Assembly (NCBI GenBank): GCA_027071355.1
Contig: JALSUJ010000410.1
Coordinates: 984 to 24,983 of the forward strand
From: Gammaproteobacteria bacterium
Lineage (GTDB): Bacteria > Pseudomonadota > Gammaproteobacteria > GRL18
Reading direction: 5' to 3'
Length of the DNA: 24,000 bases
Shown: positions 3,001-9,000 of the stretch, piece after piece
How positions within the stretch are numbered: the first letter of the stretch is position 1
How the letters are laid out: each line of letters opens with the position of its first letter
Position numbers: made by a program

Positions 3001-6000
3001 AGGAATAAGCAGGTTTCTATTATCTAAATAAAGGAGGATAACGATGTGTAAAAAAATACACGTTAAAAAGTTATTCCTTCTCCCGCAAAACGAAAGCGGG
3101 TCGCATCATAACCTGGTTCGCATTCACTCTTCATGGGTGGATGCAACCAGGAGGCGACTGGATCGTTTTTATCGTAACGAGACAGTGTGTATTACCAATA
3201 CGGTTAATAACCTGTCAATCATCCGTCAAATAAATGGGGGTGGTGGTATCAAGGGTTTTACCCGTGATGCCATTGCCATTGATTATGATGGCCGTGATGC
3301 GTTAATGATAAAGGGAGTAAAGGATAACATCGATTGTGATTTAACGGTCAGACTGGCGAGCTGGTTTGAGATTTACCGTTACTATTACAACCATCAAGAT
3401 ATGGGATACCAGGTCTCAATGAGACTGGGTATTATCGGTACCGTCTTAGGTATCATCGGGCTGTTAATCAGTCTAATCCCGCTATTTTAATCATGGCCTG
3501 TCGTTGCTGACAGGCCATCAACTAACGAAGACAAGTATGTACAGTATTTAGTTTTCAAAATGTATAACAGGAGAAAATGATGCATATTGCATTAGAGGAA
3601 TACGGCACTAAGGCAGGTCGACTGGACAAACGACAGCCAGAAAAACAATGGATTGCTTATTTGAAAAAAGACGGCAGGCTATTTACCTGGTCCGGTAGTA
3701 AAGGGACCAAGCTTCGGCTTAGAAAAACTGCCCTTGAGTGCGCACTAAGCCTAGAGCAACGTGCGGATAAAAAACGAAGAAAGGGATGTTGGGATATTAA
3801 CACTTTGCCATCTAATAACATTGGGGCAGACGAAGTTCTGCAGGTTGCAATTACTCGTGATACGGGTTATGTCACAGCGATGGATGATATTACCCATCAA
3901 TTGAAACATGACGCTATCGCCAGTGAAGTGAAAGCACTGTTTAATACACAGGGACCGAAAACAAAACATGTCGTATGCAGTTTATATAACTTAGGGTTAA
4001 TGTCTTATCTCGTTTACTTTAAACGTGAGTTGCCGGAGGCTATTACGATACGTAATCTGGAAGGTGAAGAGCTTTCTGCAAAGCATTTATGGCATGTAAT
4101 AAAGTATATAAATGATAACGGGCGACAGCACCCAAGGTTTACAAGCGAACTTGTTCGTATTAATAAAATCATTCAACCAGAATCGATTGAACGGATGTTC
4201 GCAGATATTGCGACATCAAGGATCCCACCGTTTTGTTTCTGATGACGTTACGGCTTACCCGCTAACCGGGGATAGCTCAATCATAAAATAAACCGCCTCG
4301 GTATTTATTCCAGGGCATATTTTTAACGAAGACAACTCTTCAATATTAGGAGATAAATATGTGTATAGCATTAATAGCTAAAAGTGACAAAGCTGGCATG
4401 ACAGCAAAAACGTGGATAACTCACATTAATGAAAGGACCGGGACCTTGTTTACCTGGTTCGGCTCGCGGGGATGGCGACTGCAACTTCGTACAACCGATA
4501 ATTGTACATTAGCAGCTATGATCCGTCGTGCAGATGTAAAAAAAAGCAACGGGTATTGGGAAGCTGAGTTCCTGCCATCGAATAACCTTGGTGCCAATGA
4601 GATTCTACAGTTGGAACTAACACCCGATTCAGGTTATTTTACCGTGATGGGAGAGATTAAACATCACTTGAAAAAAGAATCCGTAGCCGAAGTCAATGAA
4701 GTAGAGAAGCTGTTTAATGTAGAAAAGACAAAGTATGTGTTGTGCAGTTTACATAACTTGCATTTGCTCTCTTATCTAGTTTACTTTAAACGTGAGTTGC
4801 CGGAAGCCATTACAATTCGTAACCTTGAAGGTGAGAACCTGACGGCGGAGTATTTATGGCAATCTCTTAAGGAGGTTAAAGATACCGGAAAGCAGGCGGA
4901 TTATTATAGAGACAGCCGTTTACGTTTTATTAAGAAAAACGTGGTTCCTGCCCCGGTGAGTTTGCAATTTAGTGATATTGCAAACTCACAGATAAAACCG
5001 TTTTGTTTTTAAGGAGGCGATGATGACTTTTTTTAGTGATCCGAACCAGTTTCTTACCCCCCAGATGTATGAGAAGGCTGAGGTGCAAGATACTGTCTTT
5101 ATGGCACGACAACAAAACCTGGAAGAGGAGGCCGACCTGTTTATCATTCATCCGGATGAAAAAGCAGGAACTTGTCATATATGGAAAGGGGTGCCGTCAC
5201 AACTGACGTATTCTGTTAATCTTTTAGAAGGCTATAAAGCTTTAATTTCCATGCATGAGGATGAAGGTTATCGCCAGTATAAACAGGTAACCAGGGCGGA
5301 TTCGCTTTGTTTCATTGTTATTGGCTATCCGGCGGATTTTTACCGCCAATCGGATGCTATTCATCGACGATTTCGGGCGTTTGCAGGGAAAGATAAGGAA
5401 TTTCTTGATTATCTTTTCAATGAATTTAATAGCTTTATAAAAATTCATAAGCGAATAATCTATCCGGAGAATCTGGATGAACTGGCGATGCTGCATTTTT
5501 TAATTGAAAAGATGCGTGCTGTAACCGTTCGCAATATAATAGCGCAACCCGTTTGCAAGGAGGATATCAAGCAAAAATAGGATGCTCTGGCAAACAGTTC
5601 ACAGTGTCAGTACAGCGAGCAATCAATCTTGTACCCGATACAATACCCCAGGGCATTGTTAACCGGGGATGCGATGCTTGCACGTATTCAGCAGGACTGG
5701 TTTCGCCAGGATGCTCCAGCCTTTCCTTTCTAATCAAAATACTGCCCTTCGGGGCAGTATTTTTTACTTTTTTCTTCCTTTTTTATCAAAAATAAGGTAT
5801 AAATAAGGCGTGGATGAACATTCACCGTGGTAGCTCGCCACGCAAAACAAAAAGTATCTTCCTGGTCACAGGGTAACCGGTGACCAACACAATTCGATAC
5901 CACCCGGTAGGCAATGCCTCTACCGTCGATGACGTATCTTTTCTATTCCCAGTATTACTACAACAAACCCCGTTTATTTTGGTCGATGGCTTGCGGGCGC

Positions 6001-9000
6001 TCGACCAAAATGAATTTCTGTCTCATCTGAGACAAAAAACGTAGTAACTGGCTACGCAAAACAATCAGCATTAACCGTGCAGGCACCTGTCTGCATATAT
6101 TCAAACCCCCAGGGGATCATTCCCTGCGGGGATTGATCTCCATTTTTTTTGGAGCTCAAAAAAATGAATAACACACTAAATGAAATCCGGGCCATTGACC
6201 TGGATATACATATATGGTCCGCCCGCCGGAAATTGCGGGTCGAGGACCTGAAAAATCTGTCGCAAGACAGTATTCCGCCAGCCACTCTGGCCTCACTGGG
6301 CAGCAAAATCATCTGTGATCCGGATGAAATTGCTGTCTTTACCCGACTGAAGAAGCAGGCGACGCGAGCTTGTGAAGCAGTTGGCACCCGCTTTTTGCAC
6401 GGTTATGCCGTGCCCAAAGGTGAAATTGTTTCACTGACAGAAACATTAAATAAAATAAAAAAGGAATTTGAAACCAAAAAGGCATCATTTATTGCCCGCT
6501 ATGACCAGATCATAAGCAGCTGGATGGCGGAAAATGAGCAATGGCGAAACATTATCGCCAAAGCGATTACGCCGGCGGATGTTGTCGCGGCCCGAACCAG
6601 TTTTGGTTTTCAGGTGTTCGCGGTCAATGAGGCCACGGCGGATGATGATTCATTGGATGATTCCTTAAACACGGGATTAAACAATCATGTTGATTCCCTG
6701 GCCGATACCTTGCTGACAGAAATCAGCAAAGAAGCCTTAAAGCTGTGGGAAAACTCGTTCCACGGCCGCGACAGTATTACTCGTCGTGTTTTAAGCCCGT
6801 TAAATATGCTTCGCGCAAAATTAAACGGGTTTGTTTTTATCGATCCGTGTGTGGCACCAATTGTTGGTCATATCGACAATACGTTGGCAGGACTACCCAA
6901 AAAGGGTCGCATAGAAGGTAAAGACTTGTTGGCGCTCGAAGGTTTGTGTTTGTTGATTTCTAATAAAGACAAACTGAAAGCACATGGCAATGCCATTATT
7001 GCCAACAATAATCGGCCGGTGTCGGATCAAGCGGAAACTGAAGAACCGGTTTTTCAGGTTGATTTATCTGAAACGGTTGTTGACGAAGAAGCCGAATCCG
7101 TACCGATATTGATTGATACGGCTGTTGATCAGGATGAAATCAGGCCTGTTTTACAACCGGAACCAGAATCGGCCCAACCAAAATACCCCAGTTGGGGATT
7201 TTAAATCAATGGTGTTACCCATGACACCATTGATGGTGTTAATGGGTAATGCCGGGAGTAATAATTATGGCAACACCATTAAAAAAAACAAGCGTCCTCG
7301 AAAGAAGCCTGCCCATTGTGGCACAGGCACTTGGCCGCAAACAGGGCGTTCGTGTAATCATTGGTCAATCAGACAATGCCTGCACGACGGGTAAAGATAT
7401 TTACCTGCCTGCCTTGCCGCTTAACAAAATGAAAGCGGAAATATACGCATACGGGTATATCGATCACGAATCCGGGCACATCCGGTTTACTGATTTTTCA
7501 GTTAAGTTTAAATGCCGGTCTAGTCTAGAAAATACTTTTCGTCAGATATTTGAGGACATTCGAATAGAACAAGCTATTGGTAAAAAATACCCTGGATGTA
7601 AAATGAATATTGGTCGCTTGGTGAAAGCCATGGTTGATGATGGTAAATTTGAAAAAGTTGATACTTCAAATCATCCCGCTATGATCGTAGTGGCATTGAC
7701 ATTATATCGATGTCGACATGACATCTTAAACCAGCACGCACTGGCTGATCTTGCACGGCAGGCAACTGAGGTGGCTAATCAGGTTATACCTGCTGGCGCC
7801 ATGGTCCGGCTTACCGGATTAATGAGTAAGGCTCGCACCCTGAGCGATTCGGATGCAGCGTTATCCTTAGCCAGAGATGTGATTACCTGTCTTGAAGAAG
7901 AACAGGACAAGGAATCTCAGAAATCAAGCGATGATTCCAGTACTGATACCGGGAACGATTCTGGTTCGGATTCCGCTGATTCGAACGATGACGCGGGTAC
8001 TGATACCGGGAACGATTCTGGTTCGGATTCCGCTGATTCGAACGATGACGCGGGTACTGATACCGGGAACGATTCTGGTTCGGATTCCGCTGATTCGAAC
8101 GATGACGCGGGTACTAATACCGGGAACGATTCTGGTTCGGATTCCGCTGACTCGAACGATGACGCGGGTACTGATACCGGGAACGATTCTGGTTCAGGTA
8201 CTGGTGCCGCTGAGATTCTTCAGGAAATCGTTGATGCAAAAGATGCTGATTTGATGAATACGGATATTGCCCAGTTAGCAGCAGAACAACTGGATGAAAT
8301 GGCTGATCAAAGTGATTATCCAGTCGTTGTCGGAACAGACAGCGGATACGCGCCACCATCAGGATTAGGTGATAACTTGTTCAATGAAGCTGCTCGGCAT
8401 AGTAGTTTTCTACGTGCCAGGCTGAACGGATTACTGCAGAGTCAAAAGATGGTCAGATCATCATTAACAGATAGCGGGAAAGAGTTATCGCAAAACCATC
8501 TGTATCGTGTGGCCGTCAATGATATTCGTGTTTTCAAAAAGAAAAAACGAAAAGCAGGCATCAATACAGCTGTGAGCATTTTGCTGGATCGGTCTGGATC
8601 AATGAATGGCGATAAATCGCATGTATCAAAAACGGCATTAATTGCCGTTGCGCATGCGCTATCAATGATACAGGGTGTGTCCGTTTCATGCTCCGCTTTT
8701 CCAGGACAAACCGGACATGACGTAGAGCGAATTACTGACTTTGGTCAGTCGCCCCGTTTGTTTGCGGAAAGGTTTGATATTCATCCGCAGGGGGGCACAC
8801 CGCTTGCACAAGCTATGTGGTGGACGGCAACGCAATTATCGCGCTGCAGTGAACCGCGTAAGTTGTTGCTGGTAATCACTGACGGTGAACCTAACGATTA
8901 TCATCGGTCGCTTGCATCGATTACGCAATTAATTGAGTTGTGTGATCAATCCCAAATCGAGTGCATAGCGCTTGGAATTGGTGAGCTAAAAATTGCTGAG

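Follow-up and report, generated by a model that had tools for sequence, protein, structure and literature searches.

The window, by which we mean the whole 24,000-nucleotide stretch of DNA that was analysed, is an environmental relative of the IncC / SXT-R391 backbone (MOBH, MPF_F). In relatives found via the DUF3150 and cobS-like proteins the gene order is traN..ssb, PD-(D/E)XK, cobS, DUF3150, cobT, primase..traF, which is also the order in annotated MOBH/MPF_F plasmids, and an exonuclease gene is likewise part of the IncC / SXT-R391-type backbone listed for the window. The DUF3150 operon begins with the ATG at 6164 and is preceded by a structured region (5824-6163), the features of which are collected in Table 1 together with those of its copies elsewhere in the window.

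Table 1. Features of the proposed DUF3150-cobT leader and of related elements in the window
Feature	Position	Strand	Evidence
Short cassette (hairpin C, H1, H2, G/C hairpin) before PD-(D/E)XK nuclease operon	2022..2125	+	covariance model 2022-2066, 50.7 bits
Intrinsic terminator, 12-bp stem + T-run	5736..5768	+	stem 5736-5763; perfect inverted repeat
Candidate -10 box TATAAA	5798..5803	+	read from sequence; no good -35
First H1 copy, stem 5826-5830/5838-5842, loop TAGCTCG, AAAACAA linker	5823..5867	+	covariance model 43.9 bits, E = 2e-8
Helix 1 cgtgg/ccacg	5826-5842	+	base-by-base check
Helix 2 tggtcac/gtgacca	5863-5886	+	base-by-base check
Helix 3 cggtag/ctaccg	5905-5925	+	base-by-base check
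Stem B, 14-15 bp, A/T-flanked, GC-rich top	5973..6014	+	93% complementary inverted repeat; copies 1, 2, 3
Hairpin C: U-run, TGTCTC/GAGACA, A-run	6015..6038	+	inverted repeat; tgtctca/tgagaca at 6019-6034
Second H1, S1 6040-6044/6052-6056, loop TAACTGG 6045-6051, linker 6057-6064	6037..6081	+	best covariance-model match, 52.9 bits, E = 1e-10
Helix cgtag/ctacg, S1 of second H1	6040-6056	+	
H2 hairpin tgcag/ctgca	6078..6095	+	base check, predicted fold, relatives
G/C-rich nested hairpin CCCCC-A-GGGG-atcatt-CCC-tgc-GGGG	6106..6131	+	single hairpin in MFE
Anti-SD GATCTCC 6135-6141, U-rich loop, SD GGAG 6151-6154, ATG 6164	6135..6166	+	
H1 motif before cobS-like AAA_5 operon	9178..9222	+	covariance model, 47.6 bits
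Near-consensus sigma-70 promoter TTGACA-17-AATAAT	14499..14527	+	11/12 match
Leader copy 2 (unit I, stem B, hairpin C)	14544..14750	+	repeats; covariance match 14544-14588; junction
Attenuator hairpin + anti-SD GATCTCC / SD GGAGATC, before ORF 14996-15202	14922..14998	+	
Leader copy 3: stem B, hairpin C, H1 16110-16154, H2, attenuator hairpin 16178-16206, SD	16045..16250	+	repeats, covariance model
Further G/C-run hairpin element, primase leader	16392..16430	+	

The terminator, confirmed as a stem followed by a T-run, closes the upstream operon and sets the 5' limit of the leader region. The absence of a credible ORF downstream of it was upheld, the longest ORFs being only 54-57 aa, and copies 1 and 2 differ by a 1-nt indel (repeat offsets 8721 and 8722) that puts any ORF spanning it out of frame. 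The transcript would start near 5810, as judged from the TATAAA box, which falls short of a 9/12 sigma-70 match but is also present upstream of the orthologous DUF3150 leaders in the relatives L058 and L061; upstream of copy 1 no -35 was found, only this -10-like sequence.

All nine stem-loops proposed in the initial annotation were verified base by base, and the 11-bp stem at 5976-6011 can be extended to 14 nt with 93% complementarity. The helices at 5863-5886 and 5905-5925 are further hairpins of unit I and are common to copy 2 only. H2 keeps its position among copies and elements with a wholly different sequence. Its neighbour, described as twin CCC-N-GGGGAT hairpins (6106-6132), lies where it was placed, but the twin form was abandoned: a single nested hairpin is preferred, beating the twin fold in 38 of 39 homologous instances by a mean of 8.2 kcal/mol. 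The minimum free energy (MFE) of 5810-6170 was compared with that of shuffled sequences, none of which equalled the native value on either strand, as RNA (z = -7.2 for the + strand, -3.8 for the - strand) or as DNA (z = -6.6 and -5.0).

A cassette reused in the window and in related elements

Recurrence of the modules within the window holds where it had been reported. Segment 5824-5950 equals 14545-14671 at 98% identity, 5946-6017 equals 14668-14739 at 90%, 5972-6074 equals 16045-16147 at 92% and 6088-6151 equals 16160-16223 at 77%. A 24-nt core, GTRGTARCTNNCYACNYAAAACAA, occurs six times, always on the + strand (2026, 5827, 6041, 9182, 14548 and 16114), against 0 expected. The similarity of copy 2, which begins 20 nt downstream of the end of the sigma-70 promoter at 14499..14527, is broken off at about 14750 by an inserted miniature IS200/IS605 derivative.

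The full cassette consists of a U-run with hairpin C, H1, an A-rich linker, NCAGCA, H2, the G/C-rich hairpin, the anti-SD:SD helix and the ATG. In this fixed order it precedes orthologous genes in L058, L061, L064-L066, an SXT-like plasmid and the IncC plasmid pNDM-1_Dok01, and the IncC version was found at 3,892 places in 864 plasmid records. The relatives that share it have only 35-51% protein identity and range from 37 to 57% G+C, and compensatory changes are present, which bears out the earlier proposal that stem sequences differ while pairing is kept. The first motif copy of IncC is flanked by vcrx087 and, about 30 nt upstream, by a TATATT -10-like box. Expression of vcrx087 is reported to be constitutive, with nearly canonical -35 and -10 sequences, and to be controlled by AcaCD/SgaCD as well; we read the TATATT box as a probable part of the vcrx087 promoter.

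The H1 motif is a 4-5 bp hairpin with the conserved loop YARCUNN, followed by the A-rich linker AAAACAA and NCAGCA. A covariance-model search returned 47 matches at E <= 1, all of them in gene-sense orientation (45 come from the + strand of loci oriented by a gene, and the two minus-strand matches are in L003 and L015, loci not oriented by a gene call), and a U-run with a hairpin just 5' of H1 is visible in nearly all of them. As previously suspected, the element belongs to no named Rfam family, H1 being absent from Rfam. All five pairs of its stem S1 vary on both sides, and pairing holds in 92% of cells, a percentage that is inflated by a seed set chosen for pairing, whereas the variety of pair types is not.

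The loop of the hairpin at 6040-6056 is complementary to 6065-6068, a candidate pseudoknot that had been missed. This putative stem S2 pairs 6048-6051 with 6065-6068 (C-G, U-A, G-C, G-U), with A6047/C6069 mismatched. Across the family, pairing at the four core S2 positions reaches at least 88%, with covariation at two of them; the observed score is reached in 0 of 500 shuffles and collapses in slid controls. Exceptions to S2 pairing are G-U and A-C in about equal number, the window's own pseudoknot copies are limited to 3-4 bp and hold an A-C mismatch at one of the covarying positions, and in the first H1 copy, which is 98% identical to 14544-14588, the tail AAAGTA makes the pairing degenerate. 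The covariation between H1 and CAGC is a new observation here, and it suggests that the H1 loop and the downstream CAGC form a compact H-type pseudoknot with an A-rich third loop along stem 1. Its most likely role would be that of a 5'-proximal stabilising or factor-binding module common to the regulon. H1 also heads a candidate sRNA of ~215 nt in Rhodocyclaceae elements, where the motif lies between a conserved TTGACA-17-TATCGT promoter and an intrinsic terminator.

Putative translational attenuator

The SD-occluding helix predicted at 6135-6157 is present (gatctcc/ggagctc, 6 of 7 pairs) and encloses the SD GGAG (6151-6154). C/G-run hairpins followed by an SD and an ATG were collected in 43 non-redundant instances, in 31 of which the native central segment outdoes shuffled ones. 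Family-wide, 86% of SD-core positions are paired compared to 64% with shuffled spacers, and the anti-SD:SD helix lengthens and covaries, for example to CTCCTCC/GGAGGAG in L030. We infer that the G/C hairpin and the anti-SD segment would act as a translational attenuator that keeps the ribosome binding site (RBS) closed by default. The G-run at the 3' foot of the large hairpin could alternatively pair with the anti-SD (GGGGA/UCUCC, 6128-6141), and melting of the outer stem would then free the SD. A terminating ribosome is a candidate for melting this outer stem in intercistronic copies; the DUF3150 leader would need another factor.

This architecture corresponds to the RBS-sequestering structure predicted in IncC, and the G/C hairpin and anti-SD helix match the structure upstream of bet in the SXT-like plasmid. 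According to a sentence in a review, a 'translational attenuator' upstream of SXT bet was reported experimentally; the likeness to the SXT attenuator rests on that sentence together with the matching architecture upstream of bet.

Folding strand and alternative explanations

The initial annotation had left the folding strand ambiguous and had weighed a cis-regulatory mRNA leader against single-stranded-DNA elements. Fold stability and G-U counts settle the strand as +: in 36 of 43 cases RNA of the + strand has the more stable fold (p = 2e-5), and 103 G-U pairs occur on the sense strand compared to 45 on the other. The C-A mismatch noticed in stem B of copies 2 and 3 on the + strand is real and would be G-T on the - strand. 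Taken with the cassette at orthologous genes and the SD-sequestering helix, which stands at the start codons of nearly every gene, also inside operons, and so makes sense only in mRNA, the better-folding sense strand supports the leader hypothesis. From the sequence comparisons we thus consider it likely, at a probability of roughly 0.8, that 5824-6163 belongs to a 5' untranslated leader of roughly 355 nt in the DUF3150-cobT operon mRNA, acting as sense-strand RNA and built from a reused cassette, and that it is not a single-stranded-DNA promoter. Against this reading stand the missing -35 upstream of copy 1, the lack of any general enrichment of sigma-70-like promoters 5' of the motif (5/47 compared to 11% in shuffles), the significant folding of single-stranded DNA of either strand and the stem B mismatch.

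It is unlikely that the repeats serve mainly as direct-repeat substrates for Bet/Exo-type single-strand annealing, with hairpins that are incidental or act as exonuclease pause sites, although this alternative fares best. The leader repeats parallel the rptI repeats of IncC, and Roy et al. 2020 showed that Cas3-cut IncC plasmids were rescued via recombination between intergenic rptIa-f, the longest being 155 bp. Leader-copy spacing in pNDM-1_Dok01 agrees with the deletion sizes of that study: 1044 bp separate the copies at 12842 and 13886, compared to 10310 - 9268 = 1042, and a copy at 26963 compares with 12842 + 14076 = 26918. That a 127-nt stretch is 98% identical in copies 1 and 2 of the window, between unrelated flanks, suggests homogenisation, and a PD-(D/E)XK nuclease gene in the window and SSB genes in relatives would fit such a pathway. 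Recombination, however, requires identity rather than kept structure, whereas sequences diverge between elements while pairing, module order and position relative to the SD and ATG persist, and the strand asymmetry points to RNA. Recombination is better regarded as an additional role of these sequences than as a competing origin; the long, near-identical direct-repeat copies probably double as substrates for the element's own single-strand-annealing repair.

Copies upstream of several operons, the palindromic H1 stem-loop (GTGG-N7-CCAC) and the known dependence of IncC/SXT-family promoters on activators (SetCD/AcaCD) could also point to double-stranded DNA operators for an element-encoded regulator that coordinates these operons. 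We regard this as improbable: GTAG/CTAC and GTGG/CCAC both occur in one element and five pair types per position are found across elements, a signature of pairing and not of base-specific protein contacts. Moreover, conservation is highest in the unpaired loop and the A-rich linker, only one strand tolerates G-U pairs, and the motif lies downstream of the promoter where one is recognisable, and also within operons.

Single-stranded-DNA promoters or priming sites of the Frpo/ssi type, in which the transferred strand folds on entry into the recipient and its hairpins attract RNA polymerase or a primase ahead of complementary-strand synthesis, are slightly less probable still. Frpo modules bear a superficial likeness, being ~330 nt, noncoding, rich in hairpins and repeated before conjugative operons of the same orientation (PMC11541004); a Toprim primase is encoded in the window, and the homologous cobS-like operon of IncC acts in the recipient soon after entry. 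The hairpins are also nearly symmetric, with single-stranded DNA of either strand folding better than shuffles, and the stem B mismatch is a wobble on the minus strand only. Nevertheless, five reference Frpo/ssi sequences had no similarity by blastn-short and nhmmer, with chance 10-11-mers only and none inside 5824-6163. No -35/-10 hexamer pair was found on either strand of 5770-6163, so that no hairpin can rebuild a promoter, and stems of 5-15 bp are too short for both boxes. The template (minus) strand is the poorer folder, better in only 7 of 43 cases, and the anti-SD:SD helix ends the cassette at start codons, including those of genes inside operons. Wherever a promoter is recognisable, it is an ordinary double-stranded one that precedes the motif. 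In relatives the cassette region lies between traN and traF and not beside an identifiable origin of transfer.

Least probable of all is a nature as selfish repeats between genes (MITE, REP/BIME-like or IS-derived) that do nothing for the host element: the short palindromic modules do form a BIME-like mosaic, and the part of the MITE alternative that stands is the genuine miniature IS200/IS605 element in copy 2, whose left-end hairpin resembles hairpin C, but the repeated segments have no terminal inverted repeats or target duplications, all copies point the same way and occupy the same place (behind a terminator or stop codon and ahead of an SD), the cassette is conserved at orthologous sites across the divergent elements, and the motif was not found scattered in host chromosomes, all 16 genome and 39 metagenome matches carrying extended homology.

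This conjugative element, like its drug-resistance relatives (IncC plasmids, SXT elements), most likely reuses one folded mRNA leader cassette ahead of several of its operons.

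Structure, coding potential and recurrence of the leader

The leader upstream of the DUF3150-cobT operon is structured far above chance expectation, with MFE z-scores for 5810-6170 of -7.2 for the plus and -3.8 for the minus strand folded as RNA, and of -6.6 and -5.0, respectively, folded as DNA. The initial annotation had described a chain of hairpins without a credible ORF between an upstream terminator and the ATG at 6164, and both points hold against the sequence: all helices listed are found where they were claimed, the larger ones being recovered as well by an independent inverted-repeat scan, and the longest ORF does not exceed 57 codons. 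Copies 1 and 2 differ by a 1-nt indel (repeat offsets 8721 and 8722), which disrupts every frame across it. The recurrence of the leader modules within the window is equally real, since 5824-5950 corresponds to 14545-14671 (98%) and 5972-6074 to 16045-16147 (92%); the near-identical segments starting at 5824, 14545 and 16045 share 98%, 92% and 90% identity. A 24-nt core occurs six times in the window, on the plus strand every time, where chance predicts 0 occurrences.

Coordinates of the leader, its modules and other features of the window
Feature	Coordinates	Remarks
Paralogous ORFs	3577-4242; 4359-5012	adjacent; 221 and 217 aa; 74% nucleotide identity over 164 nt
Terminator upstream of the leader	5736-5763	plus T-run
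Leader (copy 1)	5824-6163	
Stem B	5973-6014	14-15 bp hairpin in copies 1, 2 and 3
Hairpin C	6015-6038	
H1 motif	6037-6081	stem S1, candidate pseudoknot stem S2
H2	6078-6095	
Attenuator hairpin	6106-6131	G/C-rich
Anti-SD:SD	6135-6166	
Tandem repeat in the CobT/VWA gene	7867-8208	period 57 bp (19 codons), ~six units
Full IS copy	~11440-14085	tnpA 11571-12035 on the minus strand, tnpB 12606-13994
Copy 2	14544-14750	
Miniature IS200/IS605 derivative	14750-14880	left end plus right end, no genes
Copy 3	16045-16250	
Second tnpB	18140-19342	
Low-G+C block	19500-24000	35-39% G+C; unannotated 616-aa ORF

The window is a metagenomic contig, and neither E. coli genomes nor plasmids, the latter searched in near and distant modes, gave a nucleotide match to 5700-6250. 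It encodes a PD-(D/E)XK nuclease, DUF3150, a CobT/VWA protein, a CobS-like AAA_5 ATPase and a Toprim primase, next to IS200/IS605 and restriction-modification cargo. Relatives were located via their DUF3150 and AAA_5 proteins, and in their F-type transfer system this gene block sits between traN and traF, adjoining ssb; no oriT or relaxase was found in the window. This arrangement is the backbone of SXT/R391 elements and IncC plasmids, with which two annotated MOBH/MPF_F plasmids agree. As for the other contents of the window, the two adjacent paralogous ORFs have no Pfam match and the CobT/VWA gene contains a tandem repeat. The low-G+C block encodes a BsuBI/PstI-type restriction enzyme and an Eco57I-like methylase on its minus strand and, given the second tnpB in front of it, looks like separately acquired cargo.

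The cassette in related elements and the H1 motif

In every relative of this set, the orthologous genes are preceded in the intergenic regions by the same ordered cassette. It consists of a U-run with hairpin C, the hairpin H1 (4-5 bp, loop YARCUNN), the A-rich linker AAAACAA, NCAGCA, the hairpin H2 of arbitrary sequence, the G/C-rich element CCC-X-GGGG-loop-CCCC-X'-GGG, an SD-complementary segment and the start codon. As the relatives share only 35-51% protein identity with the window and range from 37 to 57% in G+C, it is the architecture of the cassette that is conserved and not its sequence. In a MAFFT alignment of whole leaders the variable hairpins are misaligned, so that RNAalifold recovers just H1 and the inner stem of the attenuator. 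The IncC version of the cassette before the cobS-like gene was found at 3,892 places in 864 plasmid records, i.e. ~4.5 places per plasmid. Pattern scans with the H1 core returned 16 genome loci and 39 metagenome loci, all with extended homology, and none in viral contigs.

To describe H1, 34 motifs were aligned without gaps in the paired parts and a covariance model was built using the H1 stem alone, leaving loop and tail unpaired. A search of 248 kb with this model gave 47 hits, all on the gene-sense strand (45 on the plus strand of gene-oriented loci and two on the minus strand of L003 and L015, related loci that have no gene-call orientation). All five pairs of stem S1 show changes on both sides. 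Positions 3-6 of the H1 loop are moreover complementary to the downstream NCAGC, forming a second stem (S2) whose four core pairs are each paired in at least 88% of the motifs and of which two covary, from CUG/CAG to CUC/GAG, CUA/UAG or A..U (G-C to A-U and C-G). The S2 score was reached in 0 of 500 shuffles, and it collapses in controls with the partner slid by 1-3 columns. Together with the geometry, in which a 5-bp stem 1, a 2-nt loop 1, a directly stacked 4-5 bp stem 2 and a loop 3 of 8-11 nt with many conserved adenines follow each other, this covariation makes it probable, not proven, that H1 and its CAGC tail form a compact H-type pseudoknot. S2 is a short helix with two invariant pairs, and the window copies have an A-C mismatch at one of the covarying positions, leaving 3-4 pairs.

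An A-rich third loop is a feature of luteovirus frameshift pseudoknots, the preQ1-I riboswitch and the phage T4 gene 32 leader, and the stem and loop lengths of H1 fit these compact pseudoknots as well; like the T4 gene 32 and preQ1 structures, the motif resides in a 5' leader. It differs from the known examples in that its stem 2 is backed by just two covarying pairs. Since H1 lies outside the coding region, unlike the frameshift pseudoknots, it is not a frameshift signal. A preQ1-I riboswitch was considered on account of the UAGCUA-like loop and A-rich tail and was rejected, as there is no loop 2 able to house the ligand and no match to the Rfam model. At the gathering threshold, Rfam 15 gave no match in the window, in six IncC/SXT-like loci or in 16 related loci beyond tRNAs and a group II intron, and relaxed scans, preQ1 included, returned noise only. 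The leader is thus, as initially supposed, not a named Rfam family, there being no model for H1 or the cassette, and no description of either as a conserved RNA was found in the accessible literature.

SD sequestration, strand preference and alternative explanations

The 3' part of the cassette was analyzed in 43 non-redundant instances, each followed by an SD and an ATG, from the window and from L011, L016, L030, L058, L061 and L064-L068, a set of related loci that includes an SXT-like plasmid (L067) and the IncC plasmid pNDM-1_Dok01 (L068). The twin hairpins proposed initially gave way to one nested hairpin, the more stable fold in 38 of 39 cases (mean difference 8.2 kcal/mol); in several copies the twin form is impossible, as its loops would be 2 nt long. 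Pairing between the native central segments X and X' is better than that of shuffled segments in 31/43. The segment following the hairpin pairs with the SD and often also with the spacer and the start codon, and the SD core is paired at 86% of MFE positions, compared to 64% with a shuffled spacer. In the window, 6135-6141 pairs with 6151-6157 in the MFE structure, so that structure lies directly upstream of the start codon and the SD is sequestered. The combination of C/G-run hairpin and anti-SD helix is also present upstream of bet in the SXT-like plasmid and upstream of the AAA ATPase, ssb, bet and exo in pNDM-1_Dok01.

These last two modules have the same architecture as the region of a translational attenuator that was reported experimentally upstream of bet in SXT, for that gene only, in a 2013 study as cited in PMC4542580; for IncC, Roy et al. 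2020 (PMC7498323) predicted an RBS-sequestering structure ahead of vcrx089. The element family and the operons (ssb, bet/exo, cobS-like, DUF3150, cobT) are common to both settings, as is the succession of a G/C-rich hairpin, an SD-pairing segment and the start codon, acting as mRNA. The window differs in belonging to a distant environmental lineage without nucleotide similarity to IncC or SXT and in its attenuator being preceded by a 290-nt multi-module 5' leader; the effect on translation is predicted here. A conserved motif, an alignment or a family-wide description of the SXT/IncC attenuator was not found in the accessible literature.

Some further features of this region can be mentioned. 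Two adenines just 5' of the first C-run are strongly conserved (34/43 and 33/43 attenuator hairpins) and are part of a UAA in 25/43, where ~30% is expected, even without an upstream ORF ending there. A mini-hairpin TTTGCCC-N4-GGGC recurs in the window at 538, 14183, 14967, 15290 and 16219, fused to the SD (GGGCAGGAG); in long leaders it lies within the loop separating anti-SD and SD. At 6145-6164, UUUUUUGGAG/CUCAAAAAAA is palindromic, so the SD could also be held by U-run:A-run pairing before the AUG, as an alternative to the anti-SD helix. In a comparison with CsrA/Rsm-controlled leaders, which have multiple GGA motifs in hairpin loops and one of these at the SD, GGGGA was seen at the apex and foot of the hairpin in the window, in L058 and in the SXT-like plasmid, with its G's paired and not in a loop; the IncC copies read GGGC. 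No CsrA gene was found in the window, and in its closest relatives L058 (18967-20509), L059 and L060 the primase is followed closely by three genes of the CsrA family.

Next to a regulatory leader, a role of the copies as recombination repeats was considered. IncC plasmids contain intergenic direct repeats (rptIa-f) of up to 155 bp with palindromes, a Bet/Exo substrate for repairing Cas3 breaks (Roy et al. 2020, PMC7498323). The reused modules of the window parallel this known repeat family, as both are near-identical noncoding segments of up to ~150 nt with palindromes, reused in several intergenic regions, and in IncC the leader cassette appears to coincide with rptI in position. By position arithmetic across differing IncC plasmids, the spacing of the IncC leader copies fits the published deletion sizes (1044 bp compared to 1042; position 26963 compared to 26918). 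However, rptI has been described as a recombination substrate and not as a structured RNA, and its nucleotide sequences are unrelated to the window copies except for the ~30-nt H1 core.

REP/BIME elements likewise consist of short palindromic modules in varying intergenic order, and such modules often stabilise upstream mRNA segments. The cassette differs from them by being restricted to one mobile-element family and not to the host chromosome, by a module order that is fixed relative to the start codon and by the single orientation of its copies.

A single-stranded-DNA promoter or priming site of the Frpo/ssi type, as in the leading regions of F and ColIb-P9 (Masai & Arai 1997; Samuel et al. 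2024), was the second hypothesis of the initial annotation. Those regions resemble the leader in their repeated, ~330-nt noncoding modules with much secondary structure and in their location before co-oriented operons of conjugative elements with ssb and anti-defence genes, and stem B has one mismatch that favours the minus strand. The assignment is nevertheless not supported. Compared with the reference sequences (supplement 4 of PMC11541004), blastn-short returned only chance matches of 10-15 nt (E >= 0.8, where Samuel et al. 2024 define the family by BLAST E <= 1e-6), none inside 5824-6163, and nhmmer returned none. There is no -35/-10 hexamer pair on either strand in 5770-6163, and the DNA folds into local stems of 5-15 bp only, too short for promoter reconstitution, whereas Frpo/ssi have a long hairpin bearing -35/-10 boxes plus an UP element. 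It is the sense strand of the cassette that folds better and not the template, which in Frpo/ssi is the transferred strand that folds and which for the leader has the weaker z-score, and an SD-sequestering helix occupies the 3' end. When the segments from hairpin to ATG are folded, the sense strand gives the more stable structure in 36/43 (Wilcoxon p = 2e-5) and the template in 7/43, and 103 G-U pairs occur on the sense strand compared to 45 on the complement. An anti-SD helix at nearly every start codon, including those within operons, is sensible only in mRNA. The mRNA leader was therefore the right one of the two initial readings, in view of the sense-strand fold, the SD sequestration and the modular covariation; the cassette is a modular, covarying structure of the sense strand that sequesters the SD.

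Regarding transcription, recognisable promoters lie shortly before the motif. A TTGACA-17-AATAAT promoter ends 20 nt upstream of copy 2, and upstream of copy 1 there is only a conserved TATAAA. The first motif copy of IncC lies ~30 nt downstream of a TATATT -10-like box, which we read as the putative promoter of vcrx087, a gene reported in a paper on IncC to be expressed constitutively from nearly canonical -35 and -10 elements and to be under AcaCD/SgaCD control as well. Cappable-seq data are available for the plasmid pVCR94 (Durand et al. 2021). A general sigma-70 promoter was not enriched upstream of motif copies (5/47, compared to 11% in shuffles), which counts against the mRNA reading, as do the bare TATAAA at copy 1 and the stem B mismatch. 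In Rhodocyclaceae loci, TTGACA-17-TATCGT is located upstream of the motif, with a clear intrinsic terminator ~215 nt later. At these and other betaproteobacterial loci (L004-L057, e.g. L010 770-1040), this promoter is conserved and precedes a highly structured RNA, a candidate small RNA without Rfam match, which has a hairpin and the H1 motif at its start and the terminator GACCGC-cucg-GCGGUUUUUAUUUU at its end.

Several other identities were considered and dropped: a sigma-54 promoter (wrong GG/GC spacing, positions varying among copies), RfaH ops/JUMPstart (GGTAGC in common, but with GTAGTAAC in two window copies, and with a hairpin too big to fit the transcription bubble), lambda nut or rrn boxA (AACAA alone in common) and a leader peptide (ATGAATTT before hairpin C in some copies, without an SD and missing in IncC). 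A MITE or IS-derived origin of the modules was rejected, the borders of the copies having neither inverted termini nor duplications. A single genuine miniature IS200/IS605 element has inserted into copy 2, where the switch from leader to IS left-end homology falls within hairpin C (TGTCTCATCTGAG|GCGAC). Hairpin C of copy 2 is similar to the hairpin at the left end of the full IS copy, and the leader hairpin may be favoured as a target or may imitate the IS end.

Proposed mechanism and significance

In the proposed mechanism, the G/C-rich hairpin and the anti-SD helix would by default hold down translation initiation. As an alternative, the G-run on the 3' side of the hairpin could pair with the anti-SD (GGGGA/UCUCC, 6128-6141), so that opening of the outer stem would free the SD. 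At intercistronic copies, the hairpin begins 0-35 nt past the upstream stop codon, and at most 13 nt in about half of them, so that a terminating ribosome could open it; this would amount to structural translational coupling. Copies before a first gene, as in the window, would require a separate input, for which the H1 module is the obvious candidate, and this module might act as a 5' stabiliser after processing at the U-run or be bound by a protein or ligand. Recombinational repair is probably served as well by the copies of one element being nearly identical.

The window leader is a distant new member of a known, poorly described kind of leader, with one apparently undescribed element, H1, inside. 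Our most far-reaching reading, which is tentative and to which we assign a probability of about 0.3, is that the ~35-nt unit of YARCUNN-loop hairpin, AAAACAA and CAGC is an undescribed, widespread pseudoknot RNA that marks a post-transcriptional regulon comprising operons for evading host defence and for DNA metabolism, both in IncC and SXT-like elements and in many conjugative elements from the environment, heads the free-standing ~215-nt small RNA of Rhodocyclaceae elements and binds a specific protein or small ligand that sets the timing of translation of the attenuated operons.

[quoted passage not shown] The accessible literature so far comprised an attenuator upstream of one SXT gene and intergenic repeats in IncC; both appear to belong to one conserved modular RNA cassette before most genes of the region, which reaches distant environmental relatives and holds an unrecognised motif missing from Rfam, while the tempting assignment to single-stranded-DNA promoters is removed as unsupported. 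The cassette thereby offers an alignable target for mutational tests of the timing of establishment genes and, if the tentative reading of H1 were true, the locked operons would be translated at a set time, such as shortly after the element has entered a new host.
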